Assembly (NCBI GenBank): GCA_024614665.1
Contig: GCA_024614665.1_4861.1
DNA: 64,000 bases
From: a phage
Strand: one strand, 5' to 3'
Position 1 is the stretch's first letter. Each line of letters starts with the position of its first letter. Shown in pieces: positions 33,186 to 54,845 of this stretch. Under the pieces are notes generated by a model that made no database searches, was not told the origin of the DNA, and saw only the letters and a list, made by a program, of their open reading frames with translations. Position numbers and translations under genes: made by a program.

Positions 33186-33394
33186 CGTACACCGTTTCCG
33201 TATACAGCAGGTGTGCTAAGACACCCTCCTTATCTCTCGACAAGGCACAGACTATATCTTCACCATAGCTTACGCCTTAGGTGTTCTCCCACTTCGAAGT
33301 CCACTAGGACCCCTACTCGCATTTCAGCGATAGTCGTTGAACATTCCTCTCACGAGGCTTCGCTGCTGATTACCCATTATCACAACCCTTAGCA
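33186..33394 (-). other. putative intron in beta-prime-like gene (boundaries uncertain, may span about 33200-33600)
   Basis: ORF-free gap between beta-prime N-terminal homology and the DFDGD segment; no ORF inside. Confidence 0.45.
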
Positions 33395-34897
33395 CTATTG
33401 TTTAGCATAGGTCATCGTATCTGTTGTTTCAGACTTTCGTCCCCATTTCTGGTAGATACGCTTTAGGGTTTCCCAGCAATTCAGGAGAATACACATCGGA
33501 GGTTTCCCGTCCGATGGGGCTCTTTTCGAACCGTTAGCCATCTTTATCACACGGTCAGAGATACGCAGCGAACACTGGTTAACATCGGTAACAACTTCGT
33601 CGATGAACAGCGTCTGAATAGACAACTGTACCAGCGTTGGGTTACGTAGCGGTATAACCATGATCCCAAGACCGCCTGGGGATTCACGAATCAGTTCTTT
33701 AAAGATTTCGTCTACAAGCGGGTCATACTGCATTGCCGCTTTTGCGACGATACGTTCACACTGCCGCGACGAATAACCCCGGCGTAGCAGTTTGTTCTCG
33801 ATGTGGGTCGACATCAACCCAACCATCCAACGCCATGGTGCTTTTAACTTCCAGGCATCGTGTGGTTCTGAGATAGGTGAGATGGTTGCACGACCACCGA
33901 ACGGAATATGGGTGGAACCCAATTTCGCACGATAGTCACCCGGTTTACCTTCCATAGACTCACGACGGAAGTCCATGTGGAAGTACGTTAACTGACGGTT
34001 CGCTTTCAAAGCGCGACTAATCAGAAAACGCGGTTCGATCGCTTTACGCCGCGTATAAAGTAACGCGATATTTTTCACCGCATCAATAGCACCCGTGAAC
34101 ACTGGGTCTACCATGACACCACGACGACCTTCCTCAGTAACGATAAGTTTAGAGGAGATTAGCGGTAAGTGTCTTGGGAAGAATGCATGGCGTTGCGTTT
34201 CGAATAGCTCCTTCCATTGTAAACGTAAGCGTTCGCCTTCAGCGGCGTTATGCCGATTAGGTGCGAAGATTTCCTTCCAGGCTTCTGGCGTGGTAAGGAT
34301 GTTAAAGATACTAACGTGGTTATCAACCAGATTGCGCAAGCCACGAACGAAACCATGTTCTTCCAATACACGTTTCACAGCATGTGCGCGTTTACCGTCT
34401 GGTTCTTCTATAAGGTAATACGGGTCAATCATCCACATCATCAAGTCATTACCGCGTTCGATAGTGACCTTGTTACGTTCAAACTTCTTCAACTTGCTAT
34501 TAAAGAAAGCATTGAACATTGCCCAGAATCGTGGGTTGACGAAGTTACCCATTTCATCAGGTGCACGTAACCATACATCGGATTCAATTCGATGTTCAGT
34601 TACAACATAGCCACACGTCGGACACTTACAACCGAGATTGTAACGATGCGCGATCGGTGCCGGACAATCCAAACTACAAATCGGTGCAGAGTTCAGTTCT
34701 TCGTCAACGATTCTGTTCTGTACCATGCGATCGATAAGTTCAGCAACCTCGATCGCATCCCCGTTAACAGCGACATCGTTAATAATAGTGGGTGGTTTAA
34801 TACCTTTGGCAGCAGCTTCTATTTGCAAATCGGACAAATAGTTATCCTGACTAACCAACCGGCCGGATATTCCGTAGAATTTTGGTACCTTTCTCAC
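33395..34897 (-). CDS. RNA polymerase beta-prime N-terminal-like subunit, putative exon 1
   Basis: Zn-finger-like CSLDCP...CKCPTC; LRNPTLVQLSIQTLF resembling RpoC NRQPTLHRMSIMAF; catalytic DFDGD absent from this ORF. Confidence 0.65.
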   Translation of the reverse strand: MRKVPKFYGISGRLVSQDNYLSDLQIEAAAKGIKPPTIINDVAVNGDAIEVAELIDRMVQNRIVDEELNSAPICSLDCPAPIAHRYNLGCKCPTCGYVVTEHRIESDVWLRAPDEMGNFVNPRFWAMFNAFFNSKLKKFERNKVTIERGNDLMMWMIDPYYLIEEPDGKRAHAVKRVLEEHGFVRGLRNLVDNHVSIFNILTTPEAWKEIFAPNRHNAAEGERLRLQWKELFETQRHAFFPRHLPLISSKLIVTEEGRRGVMVDPVFTGAIDAVKNIALLYTRRKAIEPRFLISRALKANRQLTYFHMDFRRESMEGKPGDYRAKLGSTHIPFGGRATISPISEPHDAWKLKAPWRWMVGLMSTHIENKLLRRGYSSRQCERIVAKAAMQYDPLVDEIFKELIRESPGGLGIMVIPLRNPTLVQLSIQTLFIDEVVTDVNQCSLRISDRVIKMANGSKRAPSDGKPPMCILLNCWETLKRIYQKWGRKSETTDTMTYAKQ

Positions 34898-38778: not shown

Positions 38779-41058
38779 TTACTCCTCCGCTTCTTCCCCA
38801 TCTTCTTCCTCTCCATCACGTTCAGATTTCTTAACGTACTCACCACTACCTAATTCTTCCTTGACGGAATCTACAGACTCACCGTAGTAATCCGAAAGCA
38901 GACGAGTTCTGTTCTTGTCCATCATGAACACACCCAGACATTCCAGAATGTGATAGTAAGGTTCTACTGTGGAGAATGCGCTTCGACGTGTGTCTGCAGC
39001 ATCAATCAGCTCCGGCGGAATACCGAAGTTTTCCACCAGGAACTCTGGCAGTATCAGAGTGCGATAGGTACGATAGTTGTTTTCTTCGAACCACCGTGTT
39101 GCGGTGGTCTTAATCATCGGGTCTTTAATGTTTTCCAGCCACTCTTTAACGGCTGTTTTGTTCTCCAGGTTTACCGGAAGTTTCACGGCGTCATAAGGCG
39201 GTTCGTCCAGGTAGCCGTACTTCGGTCCAAAGATAGCGTTGTACATGCGGTGGTAATGGTAACTCTTTTCATCATCTTCAGAGTACGCACTACGGTCTTT
39301 GACGTTGGTTGTTTTCAGGTAGCCTGCTTTACCAGCGCGAATAGAATCCACCACAACGTGCTCAATTGCAGCAACCTTTTCCAGCAGAGGCAGAATCTTA
39401 ATCTTGTCACCACGTGCCACGATCTCACAGAGTTCTTTAATCGTGCGTTTGAACTCTTTCATGACCACCGGAGGAATGTTCGACGTACGTAAAGACACGC
39501 CCTTAACTTCTAACTCAGGGTCAGACTTCAACTGCCCTTCCTGGCCAGTGATGATGGAGAAATAGTGTTTTGCTTTCGTGGTTAACGCAAAGGAGTCGAA
39601 CTTAAATTCGTTCTTCATTGCGTACAAAAACAGACGCTCTTTCGCCACACCGATATTCGCCGACATACTCGCCATCAGATGACGTAAGTGCTGGGTTGCG
39701 ATATAAATCATCGCATCCGATACGCGCGTAGCTTCACGACCGTAATGTTGACCGGTATACCACTGCGCCCACCACTGTGCAGTCATCATCGTGGAGTCGG
39801 TATCAGATACCACGCCAACACGACGAACCACGTCAGGCATCCTGGCAATGTTGATTGGCAGGTTTTTGGTGGTCAGGATATTACGAATCAAGCACGCGTA
39901 CTTACCGATGGTTTTCTGCAGATACACAGCTGAGCGAATCAGCTCTTTGTATTTTTCCTGCTTATCCCACGGTTCCGCTTTGTTCGTGTTTTCGTCTTTG
40001 AGTTTAACGTCAGAGAACGACTTACCTAATGGCACGATATCAGTACGGAACTGCGAGATAATGATCTGCATGTCACCGTCGATAGAGCGCTCAGCAGCAT
40101 CCCAATCAGTGATCTCGTCTTCCATCTCCTCGGCAATCAGCGCACCGATAAATCCACGCATGAATTCATCGTTATATTTCGCCAGGTGGTAGAAGTCACC
40201 CATGTAGACAAACGCTGCACGTACCAGCGGGCTACAATTACCGACGTAGTGACGAATGAACTCCACCCCTTCCTCGTTACGGAAGTAAAACTCTGCAGAG
40301 TACATAACCACTTCCATAACCTCGTCCACAGTTGGGTAGTGGAGGTTATAGAGTTCCATACACTTCTTGAACTCCGCAAAGTTAGTCAGTGTACCGATAG
40401 AGAGTAGGTGGTCGATGACACGAGACGGCGTGTCGTAGTGACGATTACCGCCCAGTAGTCGTTCGTTGCCCGCATTACCGAATGATGTAGCTGTACGGCA
40501 GGTTGACGTCAATACAGAGTGTGAAGACTGGTTAAAGATTACCGTGTACGGTGATGAGAATGCACCCGACATCCCGTTGTTCAACGTCTTAACAGCGTTC
40601 TGTTCGTTCTTTTTGTTAATACGTAAAACTTCGTTTCCTGCAGCACCGGCTGCATACATCTCTTTCTTAACCACCGCACGCTTACGCACGTTCTCTGCCG
40701 TAAATTCAGCAAGCTTAGAACGCTTGACGTGTTCCGGCAAATAGAAAGTCAACGACGGTGCAGAAATGATCTGCTTATCAATCACTGTACGGAACAGTTT
40801 ATCTACCGTGGTGTATTTTTCTTCGCGATCGCCGGTCTTTTGATTGCGCACCCACATCTTACACACGGGGAATTCGTGTACTAACTCACCACCAGGTTGG
40901 AACATTTCTTCGACCTGCTGTCGACAGAACTCCAAAGAATATTTCCCGTTGGTGACGGTATGAATGTAGAGCGCCAGTTGTTCGTAGTACGCATCGATAA
41001 CGTCAATGTCGCGATGATACTCGTCTTGACTAAGACGAAATGGTGAATTGTAGTCCAC
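38779..41058 (-). CDS. polymerase-like protein (possible family-B DNA polymerase catalytic part)
   Basis: VVSDTDS (motif C-like), KTLNNGMSGAF (motif B-like), KAKHY (KxY-like); acidic C-terminal tail. Confidence 0.5.
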   Translation of the reverse strand: MDYNSPFRLSQDEYHRDIDVIDAYYEQLALYIHTVTNGKYSLEFCRQQVEEMFQPGGELVHEFPVCKMWVRNQKTGDREEKYTTVDKLFRTVIDKQIISAPSLTFYLPEHVKRSKLAEFTAENVRKRAVVKKEMYAAGAAGNEVLRINKKNEQNAVKTLNNGMSGAFSSPYTVIFNQSSHSVLTSTCRTATSFGNAGNERLLGGNRHYDTPSRVIDHLLSIGTLTNFAEFKKCMELYNLHYPTVDEVMEVVMYSAEFYFRNEEGVEFIRHYVGNCSPLVRAAFVYMGDFYHLAKYNDEFMRGFIGALIAEEMEDEITDWDAAERSIDGDMQIIISQFRTDIVPLGKSFSDVKLKDENTNKAEPWDKQEKYKELIRSAVYLQKTIGKYACLIRNILTTKNLPINIARMPDVVRRVGVVSDTDSTMMTAQWWAQWYTGQHYGREATRVSDAMIYIATQHLRHLMASMSANIGVAKERLFLYAMKNEFKFDSFALTTKAKHYFSIITGQEGQLKSDPELEVKGVSLRTSNIPPVVMKEFKRTIKELCEIVARGDKIKILPLLEKVAAIEHVVVDSIRAGKAGYLKTTNVKDRSAYSEDDEKSYHYHRMYNAIFGPKYGYLDEPPYDAVKLPVNLENKTAVKEWLENIKDPMIKTTATRWFEENNYRTYRTLILPEFLVENFGIPPELIDAADTRRSAFSTVEPYYHILECLGVFMMDKNRTRLLSDYYGESVDSVKEELGSGEYVKKSERDGEEEDGEEAEE

Positions 41059-49529: not shown

Positions 49530-49605
49530 CGAGCAAACGGACGGATTCGAACCGTCGAAATATCCGATTATGAGTCGGGTGTTAATTCCTCTAACTTCGC
49601 TGCTC
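49530..49605 (-). tRNA. tRNA-like, anticodon CAU (Met or Ile2), imperfect acceptor stem
   Basis: T-arm GACGG-TTCGAAT-CCGTC, anticodon loop CTCATAA, D-arm GTTA..TAAC; acceptor pairing imperfect. Confidence 0.5.
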
Positions 49606-49606
49606 T

Positions 49607-49675
49607 TGCTTTGACCGGTCTCGAACCGGCGACCTTCCTCAAAGAGGTTGCTCTACCTACCTGAGCTACAAAGCC
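49607..49675 (-). tRNA. atypical tRNA-like element (about 69 nt), anticodon uncertain
   Basis: Acceptor GGCTTTG/CAAAGC, D-arm TAGCTCAGGTAGGTAGAGC, T-arm GCCGG-TTCGAGA-CCGGT; anticodon/variable region 3-4 nt too short. Confidence 0.4.
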
Positions 49676-50757: not shown

Positions 50758-50834
50758 TGGCGGGGGCACGAGGTTTCGAACCTCGAACCTTCGGTTTTGG
50801 AGACCGGTGCGCTACCAATTGCGCCATACCCCCA
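50758..50834 (-). tRNA. tRNA-Trp (anticodon CCA)
   Basis: Minus-strand GGGGGTATGGCGCAATTGGTAGCGCACCGGTCTCCAAAACCGAAGGTTCGAGGTTCGAAACCTCGTGCCCCCGCCA: canonical cloverleaf, loop CTCCAAA, 3' CCA encoded. Confidence 0.85.
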
Positions 50835-50926: not shown

Positions 50927-51418
50927 TCACCTCCGTAGTTCGTAAGTGCTAATCTCACCACCGGTGTAGATATCGCATTCGGACGCAATCTCAACAGCAC
51001 GAACCGCATTCGCGCCCATCTTCATCGCACCCAACGCGTACTCGTAACCGCTTCCGGTTGCCAGAGGTGGTGTGGCTTCACTCCACCACAACGACACGTC
51101 GTCTTCACGCTTCCCACCGACTATCGCTTTCCCTGAGGCCAGAAGCATCAGGAAAGTAAAATCCATCTTCGCAGGTAACTGCGAGCTTTGTGTTAACCCC
51201 TTGTAGCCGGGTCTCAAGCGGATAGTTTCCAGCAGGGCCAATTGTCCTGTGATGTCGCCGCTTACCCCGAACACCACAATTCGTTCACCGGTAATCCACC
51301 ACTCCTCGTCAGGAGGACAGACGAATAACTTCTGGGTATTCAGGTTGCAGATATTCGACCCACGGGTTAACTGGCCGTCAGCAGCTAAGACTTTTCCATC
51401 GAACGCTATCGTGGTCAT
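50927..51418 (-). CDS. HslV-like N-terminal-nucleophile peptidase
   Basis: MTTIAFDGK..AADGQLT..VFGVSG..TGSGYEYA..ASECDIYTGGE resembles E. coli HslV including Thr directly after initiator Met; GGAGA SD. Confidence 0.7.
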   Translation of the reverse strand: MTTIAFDGKVLAADGQLTRGSNICNLNTQKLFVCPPDEEWWITGERIVVFGVSGDITGQLALLETIRLRPGYKGLTQSSQLPAKMDFTFLMLLASGKAIVGGKREDDVSLWWSEATPPLATGSGYEYALGAMKMGANAVRAVEIASECDIYTGGEISTYELRR

Positions 51419-52388
51419 GATTTAATTCTCCGTTTGGTTTATCATACCTCACGCAGAATCTGTAAATTTTAATCAGCCAGGTACCGTCGTTTCTCAACGG
51501 GAGTACCCACCCCTCTCGTCTGTTCCGAGCCGCCAAGATTTGGACCAACCTCCTCGTCGGAGTTATCCCCCAAGTCTGCGGTTCTACACGCAGACCCCTT
51601 TTCGACGCAACGCCGAATTCGAATCAGTTTTGGCCCGACGCCAGAGCGGAATCAGCGATAACTATCGGAGGTAAGTTCAACGACGTCTCTCCGCTGCCCA
51701 GTCCTCTGGCGCTGCCACGGTCAACTCGGATTTTGTCATGGGTGCGCAGTCGACTTTCTCGACACTCTCGCAAACCGAACTACGCCCGACGTAGCACCGT
51801 CGGCAGGTCGGTTATTTACCGAGTACCTGAATGGGTGGTGATTGTCGGAATCCCCGCCGACGCTCACCGGTTCTGTTCCACGGCGAAAGTTTTCCAGAAC
51901 ATAATAAATCACGCAGTGTTAGATTGCGCTTTGTCGAAGACACCACGGTAGGTATTTTCGAAAAAGCGTCCTGGGTAACAATCCCAGGACTTGGAGCCCT
52001 AGCGTGCAGGGTTTAAAAGTGATTGGACCATTGGCGCGGTCAATCGCTATTCGCATATAACAACAAACTCACGTAATCAAAAAATTACCGGCTCGAGGCG
52101 TAGGCGTCCAGGAGCCGGTGAGTCACACAGCAGTGAGTCCCTCTGCGGGGATTTTCGTGGAGCTTGTCGTTGGAATAAAAATCCGTCCCCGGACGGGTTG
52201 GTGGTGTGGGTCGACTTGTCAGAGTCTGCCGTCCAGGGAGGCGGCCACCGAAGCTATGGGTTTTGGACATCGAGTGGTGGTCTGAACACACGATAGGGAA
52301 ACCACGTAAAAAATACACAGGGTACCCAAACCAGGACGTCTGTCCGATCACGATCTCTTAATAAGGATCACGCGCGCGCCCGCACGCG

Positions 52389-52497
52389 TTTTAAGATCTT
52401 AATATATTAATATATTTATTTATATAAATAATTATAATAATTAAATATAATACCTAAAGGTATTATTATATTTAATATTATTATATATTTTAAAAGA
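52389..52497. repeat. 109-bp almost pure AT island with internal palindromes, flanked by alternating CG tracts and ATAAGGA direct repeats
   Basis: Perfect 16-bp palindrome TTATTTATATAAATAA at 52416-52431; CG tracts 52369-52388 and 52511-52532; ATAAGGA at 52361-52367 and 52533-52539. Confidence 0.7.
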
Positions 52498-53124
52498 TCC
52501 TGGAGGATACGGGTGTGCGCACGCGCACGCGTATAAGGAAAGGGTCTTCGACCCGATCCACAGGATCGATCTAAAAAACAATCTAAGTGATTGTTTTAAA
52601 AAGAAATTTTGAGAATTAGATTAAATTATCCCCTAAGGGGGATTTTAGAGTGAGTTAAACAACCCAAAGAACTCGTAAGTAACCGACAGTGTGTGTCGGT
52701 TACAGAACGATCCAGTTTTCACCCAGACATGGCACGAAGTGCTACCCAACGTGTGATCGTCGTCGCCGGCCGCGACCGTCACCTCGGAGCCGAAACGGGA
52801 ATGGCACTCTCGCGCTCTCAACGGCCCGCTGGCGCGATTTTCCGGTAGGGGGAACCCAAGTGTACTGGGTCAGGTATAAATCTCGTTCTAGCGCTTTCTA
52901 GAGCGTTTTTAATAACTGGTTAAAAAACATACAATCCTGAATCCACATTCCCTGAATTTCCTCGCCCCGACAAAAATAAATTCTCTGTCTCGATACATAA
53001 CCCCCTCTAAAACGCACGTAACCGACCCTAGAAAACGATAAACTGCCAAAAACGAGCTACCCTACATCCAGACCACTTAATCGTTTTCTGACGTCTCCTA
53101 GACCCCCTTTAACCGGCCGGTTAA

Positions 53125-53184
53125 AAAATAATCAAAAAAAAATAAAAAAAATAAGATTGGCGTACTCCCCGAAGAGAGTACGCC
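53125..53184 (-). terminator. intrinsic terminator
   Basis: Hairpin GGCGTACTC-loop-GAGTACGCC followed on minus strand by long T-run. Confidence 0.65.
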
Positions 53185-53191
53185 TAGTGAC

Positions 53192-53701
53192 TTAACACTT
53201 GATGGTATAGCCATCAAGGCCAAGGTGTACTGGTTTTATCCATAACCCTGGCTCCCCGAAAATATTCAGGTCGTAAGTTTGGTAATGCATGATCTTTGCA
53301 GGAACATGCACACCCATGCGCTGCAGAAATTCCCAGACGGCGATGTAGCGTTCACGTGTGATGAACATTAACCCGGAGTCGAACCCGGAACCGATGTCTA
53401 AGAAATTACCAAGAGAACTGTCAAAACTTGACACACCATCTTGAGTAAGTGCGACCAACCCTTTAGTTAAATCTCTGTGGTTGTCAATGAAGTTACAGAG
53501 ATCTACGATGGTTATTTGACCGTAAATACGACGGAGGACGGCAGCAACAGCCAAAATCTCGCTGGTATTTCCGTAGTCACCTAAAGGGTTATGGTCCATC
53601 ATCGCAGTAATTATGCTTGTGTCACAGAGGTCGATTAACCGCTGGTCGTGTACCACCAGGTTAAGACCTTGCCCCACCCGCATGGTTGGCGCAGTAAACA
53701 T
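53192..53701 (-). CDS. hypothetical protein
   Basis: Start set at ATG (MFTAPTMRV) with AAGGAG SD; terminator downstream. Confidence 0.65.
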   Translation of the reverse strand: MFTAPTMRVGQGLNLVVHDQRLIDLCDTSIITAMMDHNPLGDYGNTSEILAVAAVLRRIYGQITIVDLCNFIDNHRDLTKGLVALTQDGVSSFDSSLGNFLDIGSGFDSGLMFITRERYIAVWEFLQRMGVHVPAKIMHYQTYDLNIFGEPGLWIKPVHLGLDGYTIKC

Positions 53702-53711
53702 AGGATGCTCC

Positions 53712-54845
53712 TTACGTTTTGACTGACTGTGAAGGTAATCTGGCATCGTACATTAAAAAGATTTCCAGCAGGCTCATACCCGTCGCGTAAAAGATTTGGT
53801 CTGTGATGACACTCACTAACGCTTCCGGGTCTATTGCATCTACCGCAAAATCACTGTCGAACTGCCAGAACTCGACGTCATCCCCCTTTTCAAACATTGC
53901 GGCATATAGTCCAGGTTTTACACCACGCCGGAACGAAAAGAGTTTTGCGTCAGACTCAGTGTCCTTACCATAGATTTCCCCATCAGTCCGTGTGATCGCT
54001 GCACGTTTACACCGAGTTACCGTAAGGAGCGCACGGTTTGCAGATGCTTGCGATTTAAACGGATAGGGGCCATCGTATGTCGGGACATTCTGGTCGCCTA
54101 AGGCATCAAGTGCCTTACTCCGATAGACTACCGGAGACTTAAAATTACACAGTCGATTCCCTTCGGTAAACATTGTGTATTCGACCTTAACGTCGGTACC
54201 GACGAGGTCAGCAGGGGACACTTTGTAGTGTGCTAATTGTCCCTGCACGCGGCGAGAAAGCATCGATGCCAGGAACGTGTGGTTGCCCTGTGTGCGCAAG
54301 ACATACCCAAACTCTGTGCAGTCGATGATACGAGCGTCCATACGTCGTACAGGCTCCAGCCGGTAAGTCACATCATTCGCTTCGATAAGAAACTGACTGA
54401 TGCTAACATCGCGAGATCGATGTTTGATTGCTTCAAACACTTCACCCGCTTCCAGAATGGCTGGTTCAATTACATTGACCTGGAATGGGAGGGGTTTCGT
54501 CGGCCGTTGACCCATTGTTGTCACTGTCATCGAACGTAGCCATGGATCGTCCTCGCTAGGGTCATTGGAAAGCCAATGTGTTAACCAGCGAGAAAGGTTC
54601 TGTGGAATCGTTGCGGTAGAATATAAAATCACGGTACCCATTATGCCTGCATCGGCCAGCAAGCGTGCGAGTACCGTGTTCATCGAATCGTATTTACCAT
54701 TTCGAAGAATAGGTAATCCTCCGACCTGGACCATTTCGCAGATGACGCCGTGCGGCAGCACCCACATCTTCACTTGTTGGGCAGAATGTATCTGTCCCGT
54801 GCGTAGCTTTTCCTGCCACGCGTGCTTACGTTCATAGTTCATCAT
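53712..54845 (-). CDS. hypothetical protein
   Basis: 377-aa ORF. Confidence 0.7.
   Translation of the reverse strand: MMNYERKHAWQEKLRTGQIHSAQQVKMWVLPHGVICEMVQVGGLPILRNGKYDSMNTVLARLLADAGIMGTVILYSTATIPQNLSRWLTHWLSNDPSEDDPWLRSMTVTTMGQRPTKPLPFQVNVIEPAILEAGEVFEAIKHRSRDVSISQFLIEANDVTYRLEPVRRMDARIIDCTEFGYVLRTQGNHTFLASMLSRRVQGQLAHYKVSPADLVGTDVKVEYTMFTEGNRLCNFKSPVVYRSKALDALGDQNVPTYDGPYPFKSQASANRALLTVTRCKRAAITRTDGEIYGKDTESDAKLFSFRRGVKPGLYAAMFEKGDDVEFWQFDSDFAVDAIDPEALVSVITDQIFYATGMSLLEIFLMYDARLPSQSVKT

Follow-up and report, generated by a model that had tools for sequence, protein, structure and literature searches.

We analysed a 64,000-nucleotide stretch of phage DNA (NCBI GenBank assembly GCA_024614665.1, contig GCA_024614665.1_4861.1), referred to here as the window, and found in it a non-coding element of about 230 bp (52346-52571) that we tentatively propose as a putative cis-acting site for replication initiation in nucleus-forming jumbo phages of the SPN3US-like group. 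The window represents an SPN3US-like jumbo phage (Seoulvirus), and its positions 51000-54000 matched SPN3US and about 30 close relatives with 95-100% identity in a megablast search. Within it, a 109-bp AT core is bracketed by alternating tracts rich in GC, by ATAAGGA boxes and by eight GATC sites, and since specific boxes surround an easily melted segment in a conserved, single-copy element, the arrangement resembles a replication origin.

The initial annotation of this DNA had suggested a replication origin or a packaging (pac) site. This pair still provides the best candidates for a site that is single-copy, conserved, non-coding and the most easily unwound of its genome, although the function itself is read from sequence, and we judged an origin to be likelier than a packaging site and the most likely assignment. 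A fuller version of the proposal makes the element an origin, or an origin combined with the packaging start, which a phage protein would recognize by its AGGATC half-sites and the phage Dam would gate inside the phage nucleus; this is possible but rather doubtful. Full-text literature searches yielded no description of an origin or a pac site for SPN3US or the chimalliviruses, nor of this element. If the proposal is true, nucleus-forming jumbo phages would gain their first defined origin, which would offer a handle for replicons and phage engineering. The element is a single, sharply defined and tractable candidate in the genetic model phage SPN3US, and its natural variants reveal which of its parts are constrained.

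Anatomy of the element and its extremes in the SPN3US genome

The element is composed of the following parts (window coordinates, no strand assigned):

52346-52369: left box GATCACGATCTCTTAATAAGGATC, with three GATC and the left ATAAGGA copy (52361-52367)
52369-52388: left GC-rich alternating tract CACGCGCGCGCCCGCACGCG, self-complementary
52389-52497: AT core, the least stable duplex of the genome, with GATC at both edges (52395, 52496)
52406-52441: near-palindrome of 36 bp, with 18-nt arms that are 89% complementary and no loop, containing a perfect 16-mer
52440-52476: hairpin or dyad with the perfect core ATAATACC-TAAA-GGTATTAT at 52447-52466, holding the sole C/G pairs of the AT core
52492-52509: box 3, AAAAGATCCTGGAGGATA, an imperfect dyad GATCCT-NN-AGGATA
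52511-52535: right GC-rich alternating purine/pyrimidine tract, unmatched in length genome-wide
52527-52542: right box ACGCGTATAAGGAAAG, carrying the right ATAAGGA copy (52533-52539)
52542-52571: small hairpin GGGTCTTCGACCC, then the right GATC cluster (52555, 52564, 52568)

All coordinates that the initial annotation had given for the AT stretch, the CG tracts, the ATAAGGA repeats and a 16-bp palindrome agreed with our reading of the sequence. The two CG tracts (52369-52388 and 52511-52532) share CGCACGCG. Within the AT core, the only bases other than A and T are G52395, C52398, CC52453-54, GG52459-60 and G52496, and the perfect 16-bp palindrome TTATTTATATAAATAA (52416-52431) lies inside the 36-bp near-palindrome. 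The GATC sites are located at 52346, 52352, 52366 and 52395 on the left, and at 52496, 52555, 52564 and 52568 on the right. The half-site AGGAT(C/A), which often overlaps a GATC, is found once in the left box; box 3 has two copies, and the right box a degenerate one.

Genome-wide comparisons were made with the full SPN3US genome (240,413 bp), whose GenBank record has its position 1 at window position 52603 and carries the element at record positions 65-243 on the opposite strand. The island was the most AT-rich 100 bp, with 95% A/T versus 74% for the next such segment in the SPN3US genome and 72% for the next in the window. Nearest-neighbour energies over the whole genome gave -87.9 kcal/mol per 100 bp for the island duplex, versus a mean of -140.1 (standard deviation 6.1) and -111.9 for the next segment. 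No other 100 bp in 240 kb is as unstable as the island, which lies 8.6 standard deviations under the genome mean, in line with the unwinding-prone core of the initial annotation. Its description of the flanking tracts as Z-DNA-prone holds at the level of sequence, in that the alternating purine/pyrimidine run at 52513-52535 (23 nt) is the longest of the genome, the runner-up being 16 nt; the tracts might adopt the Z-form itself.

The GATC sites are also exceptional, with eight in 226 bp and a maximum of four in any other 230-bp window of the SPN3US genome. Genome-wide, GATC occurs at 2.0 per kb, about half the expectation, and the cluster stands out all the more in that a genome which otherwise avoids GATC has a gene for a close orthologue of Dam (RefSeq ACQ60_gp161). 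Its product matched Pfam PF02086 at E 2.5e-52, Dam of E. coli at E 1.4e-54 and the DpnII methylase at E 1.9e-37.

Chance levels differed among the motifs. The palindromes described earlier are indeed present (the 16-mer at 52416-52431 and an imperfect one at about 52440-52476), but the 16-mer is statistically weightless: a perfect stem equal to the best in the core arose in 31% of core shuffles, which places AT-only palindromes at chance level, and the 36-bp near-palindrome (52406-52441) is likewise at chance level for its composition. The CC-N4-GG arrangement (CC-TAAA-GG), formed by the core's only paired C and G bases (two C and two G), is non-random, as it appeared in none of 20,000 core shuffles. 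No A-tract phasing at 10.5 bp was found in the core, suggesting flexibility or ease of melting and not an intrinsic bend. The left box and box 3 each occur once in the SPN3US genome, even when three to four mismatches are allowed, and the right box has one other genome match at two mismatches (record position 39918). The 7-mer ATAAGGA alone is found in 23 copies.

Conservation among relatives

Seoulvirus, Erskinevirus, Machinavirus and Wellingtonvirus all carry the element in the same syntenic position, as do several metagenomic contigs, with one copy per genome. Throughout, the genes upstream of it are homologous to the same two genes of the window, with protein identities of just 48-60%. The comparison with relatives, which the initial annotation had proposed, thus placed the unit at the orthologous position in four genera with its flanking boxes conserved. 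In the window, it sits in a 1.77-kb gap without annotated genes, which is bordered by two genes:

50927-51418, minus strand: HslV-like peptidase gene, left border of the non-coding gap
53192-53746, minus strand: gene of unknown function, right border of the non-coding gap

In a sensitive BLAST search with 52250-52650, the block 52344-52542 showed about 81% identity in the Erwinia phages Asesino, phiEaH2 and Stratton, and parts of it were matched in Huxley, Machina, Kwan, Wellington and others. The non-coding DNA that surrounds it in the 1.8-kb gap gave no BLAST match in the Erwinia phages, in which only this block was recovered. Scans of IMG/VR yielded further metagenomic variants, on contigs of 225-240 kb, and a pattern scan confined the true copies to the SPN3US-like clade. 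The element resembles known origins and pac sites in kind, while by sequence and layout it is a family of its own in one jumbo-phage clade.

We then compared the layout and derived consensus sequences from 14 distinct versions of the element. The left box reads gAtctC.taaTAAGGA.TCaCgCGCG in the 14 sequences, mostly with extra GATC sites before it, and the left GC tract is present in all relatives with a length of 7-25 nt. Box 3 is the most conserved block, with the consensus ttAAAAgATCCTGtAGGAaA, and the right GC palindrome is found in every variant in differing sequence, such as CGCGTGCACGCG, GCGCGTACGCGC and GCGTGTGCGCGCACACGC. The right box consensus is CGCGtaTAA.gaAagga, followed in most relatives by more GATC sites. 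The AT core, in contrast to these boxes, is kept neither in length (67-139 bp) nor in sequence, at 82-97% A/T. The cores mostly hold a short dyad, or two, in which both arms vary in concert, and most relatives keep one, in another sequence, at the place of the 52440-52476 dyad. Examples include ACC-TAAA-GGT, ATATC-TAAA-GATAT, ATCCC-TAC-GGGAT (CCC-TAC-GGG) and AAACCC-GTA-GGGTTT, and the Kwan-type variants have AT-only dyads; the dyads of the core and of the right GC tract thus survive changes on both arms. The paired 7-mers differ from each other in most relatives (ATAAGGA/ATAATGA, ATAAAGA/ATATAGA), though they lie inside conserved boxes.

Since the boxes are conserved and the core is free in length and sequence, a bulk melting property would fit better than a fixed geometry. 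Likewise, the twofold variation in core length, together with the lack of A-tract phasing, favours bulk unwinding over a precisely spaced nucleoprotein machine.

Replication origin or packaging site as candidate functions

We infer the following scheme for the putative origin. A phage protein would bind the boxes that bear AGGAT(C/A), namely those on the left and right and the dyad of box 3, and the near-pure A/T core of 67-139 bp would melt under negative superhelical stress. The melted core would then serve as the unwinding element onto which the phage DnaB-like helicase and the replisome are loaded, and the GC-rich alternating palindromes on either side would clamp the bubble and may absorb supercoils as a cruciform or in the Z-form. 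The phage Dam-type methylase would act on the eight GATC sites, some of them overlapping half-sites, and these could tie firing to the methylation state. The Dam orthologue is kept in all four genera (Seoulvirus, Erskinevirus, Machinavirus and Wellingtonvirus); Dam homologues are also found in Cronobacter phage records, so that the co-occurrence is uninformative.

Several known origins provide parallels. In oriC and in P1 oriR, GATC clusters couple initiation to the methylation state. The element is comparable to the E. coli oriC 13-mers and P1 oriR in its AT-rich meltable segment with GATC at the edges, where GATCTCTTAATAA and GATCTTAATATAT resemble the GATCTnTTnTTTT 13-mer, and in being a single-copy element with a GATC cluster and an available Dam methylase. 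It differs from both in the lack of conserved DnaA boxes (as judged by eye), of an iteron array and of a known initiator, and its core is much longer, purer in A/T and flanked by GC-rich alternating palindromes. Since the phage replicates in a protein shell that probably keeps out host proteins, DnaA or SeqA would be unlikely players. As an analogy only, herpes simplex virus oriS/oriL likewise place an A/T dyad centre, prone to hairpin formation, between GC-rich recognition boxes, but they share no homology with the element in sequence or protein, the boxes of the element are direct rather than inverted, and its core is far longer. In T4 oriF/oriG and the T7 primary origin, a promoter is followed by an unwinding element and priming occurs from an R-loop. 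The phage similarly brings a transcription apparatus of its own, and its AT-rich unwinding stretch lies where transcription is co-directional, but unlike in those origins, no recognizable phage promoter motif adjoins the core.

A number of observations weigh against an origin. No recognizable initiator gene adjoins the element: gp002, gp003, gp004 and gp005 had no Pfam match, gp002 had no fold match either, and gp003 has a predicted ligase-like rather than initiator-like fold. There is no clear iteron array, just four AGGAT(C/A) half-sites, ATCCACA at 52556-52562 is not kept by relatives, and no conserved DnaA box was seen in the flanks by eye, no formal scan having been run. GC skew, proposed by the initial annotation as a means to locate an origin or terminus, gave no origin signal in the window or in the genome. 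Both the window skew and the cumulative whole-genome skew track gene orientation, with a minimum at record position 802 that is a record-start artefact, so that neither an origin nor a terminus can be read from it. The architecture of the GATC cluster suits a P1-type pac equally well, and recombination may drive most replication in T4-like phages and possibly in chimalliviruses. Finally, the element is not present at the syntenic spot in the sister genus Derbicusvirus (CR5, EarlPhillipIV and Phobos), and therefore, if it is an origin, it would be clade-specific or fast-evolving.

The syntenic spot in Derbicusvirus is occupied by a different, milder AT-rich stretch (about 79% A/T) with the palindrome AATTGATACAATCAATT, CATTCATT repeats and CCCCCTT-GATC-CCCCCTT, which may be a functional analogue.

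A P1-type pac site is the main, though unlikely, alternative to an origin. Here, the terminase complex would bind the GATC boxes on both sides and make the first cut in the central region, and methylation of GATC by the phage Dam would govern the timing and the number of sites cut. In P1 itself, GATC hexamers are clustered at both ends of a 162-bp pac site, and cleavage depends on Dam methylation. The element shares with it two GATC clusters that flank a centre of about 100 bp having GATC at its edges only, a phage-encoded methylase of the Dam family, and its uniqueness in the genome. In addition, the large terminase gene, transcribed from the same strand, is located about 4 kb to the right beyond four genes of unknown function, and the island contains the ends of many public records and of two metagenomic contigs. 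However, none of the eight GATC is in the P1 hexamer context TGATCA/G, the core shows no A-tract bending, and an IHF-like site was not seen in it by eye, no scan having been run. Furthermore, the element is neither in nor beside a small terminase gene, which is neither known nor adjacent, the nearest terminase gene encoding the large subunit, and its centre, unlike that of the P1 site, is pure A/T and of variable length, which poorly suits a fixed cleavage geometry. Published work also counts against a pac site: PhageTerm analyses of related chimalliviruses indicated headful packaging without pac (PMC6690015), and papers on the clade assume headful packaging of the phiKZ type, with base 1 set by alignment (PMC6256631).

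The record ends are better explained by assembly gaps than by termini. At least eight public genome records end within the 109-bp island: EC001, Lh1B, JN03 and SPFM17 at 52404/52405, SPFM16, Proteus phage 7 and SPFM2 at 52460-52468, and SEGD1 near 52487; the two contigs that stop at the island are from IMG/VR. When the opposite ends were compared for five records, three proved to be gaps with 35-225 bp of sequence lost, namely SPFM17 (225 bp, 52406-52630), SPFM16 (63 bp, 52397-52459) and Proteus phage 7 (35 bp, 52467-52501), the public records concerned being LR535914.1, LR535915.1 and MT679221.1, and the others, EC001 and JN03, were seamless cuts at the left edge of the 36-bp near-palindrome (52406-52441). 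Many assemblies, moreover, run through the island unbroken. We thus rejected the record ends as physical termini, as lost sequence and cuts at palindrome edges denote sequencing or assembly dropout. Because dropout is located at an extremely AT-rich, hairpin-prone stretch, these ends neither support nor oppose a pac site. Several records labelled as complete are accordingly incomplete at the island, and assemblies of this clade need to be checked there. As a separate observation, many of the SPFM records LR535901, LR535903-LR535908, LR535911-LR535913 and LR535917 matched the region solely as 27-40 short pieces, which suggests that these deposits are error-rich or fragmented sequence.

Architectural, transcriptional and insertion readings, and the gene neighbourhood

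Another unlikely reading takes the element as an architectural site, that is, a sink for supercoils in cruciform or Z-DNA form, a site of strong topoisomerase action, a recombination hot spot from which recombination-dependent replication starts, or a site for anchoring or organizing the genome in the phage nucleus or capsid. It would accommodate the juxtaposition of the longest alternating purine/pyrimidine run of the genome with its least stable duplex, the conserved dyads, the single copy, and the SbcD-like and SMC-like proteins that the phage encodes. No specific family of such sites fits, however, and the half-site and GATC boxes point to sequence-specific recognition, which is already covered by the origin and pac models.

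A transcriptional or RNA role appears improbable. The element might act as a region of strong promoter or terminator activity, or encode a structured non-coding RNA whose paired GC tracts enclose an AU-rich domain. Indeed, the minus strand folds as RNA at -53.8 kcal/mol with a z-score of -5.8 and the GC tracts paired, and the plus strand folds as DNA with a z-score of -4.0. The genes around the element are all on the minus strand, the early promoters of these phages are marked by AT-rich motifs (PMC7598289), and terminator-like hairpins are enriched in 51300-53300 (10 versus 2.5 expected), mainly on the minus strand, including those at 53184-53159, 52196-52183 and 51990-51968. Short transcripts or decayed genes may thus be present within the non-coding gap.

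Several observations count against it. A 240-kb genome must hold dozens of promoters and terminators whereas there is one such island, which makes a generic promoter or terminator unlikely. As a candidate early-promoter motif, we derived CAGATA(G/T)ATATTAYCT from its recurrence; it has about 19 copies in the genome, on one strand and mostly upstream of genes, and probably represents the consensus of early promoters used by the virion RNA polymerase in this clade. Six copies are found in the window versus 0.13 expected (22871, 26614, 28030, 36880, 36973 and 48165, all on the minus strand), but none in the island or within 4 kb of it, and an early promoter was therefore rejected. The conserved GC palindromes are not followed by a proper U-tract on either strand, which speaks against a terminator. 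As for a structured RNA, Rfam 15 gave nothing at the gathering score and nothing in the element at E 1, the only chance match (15.6 bits, E 0.31) lying outside it. Alternating GC tracts pair trivially, so that the z-score of the RNA fold is weak evidence; in addition, the core length varies twofold, and the conserved parts resemble dyad operator boxes rather than helices.

A small inserted element was put forward by the initial annotation as an alternative, from the identical ATAAGGA copies on either side of the unit in the window. Such a mobile insertion, similar to a miniature inverted-repeat transposable element with a 7-bp target-site duplication, is highly improbable: the orthologous position in four genera and metagenomic relatives, the single copy per genome with true IMG/VR copies in this clade only, the direct rather than inverted flanks, and 7-mers that differ in most relatives, sit within conserved boxes and number 23 in the genome together exclude a recent insertion of this kind. 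A protelomerase telomere-resolution site of the N15 telRL kind was also considered, as we take ACGCGCGTATAATG in Asesino to resemble N15 telO in its CG/TATA sequence, and was rejected on the orientation of the repeats, since the flanks are direct and not inverted; the SPN3US annotation lists neither a protelomerase nor a tyrosine recombinase.

Phage 1252 carries about 570 extra bp beside the HslV-like gene (at window position of about 51419), which encode an open reading frame of 191 residues without a Pfam match and are not present in the window. SPFM4, SPLA5c and others have an extra segment of similar size (about 555 bp) within the same 3-kb stretch.

Further from the element, the window contains a group I catalytic intron at 33228-33537 on the minus strand (Rfam RF00028, 65.5 bits, full-length model match). 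Of three tRNA-like regions on the minus strand (49532-49603, 49606-49675 and 50758-50833), one was called as tRNA-Trp by both ARAGORN and Rfam, and the two others are weak matches reported by Rfam only (30.6 and 38.1 bits).

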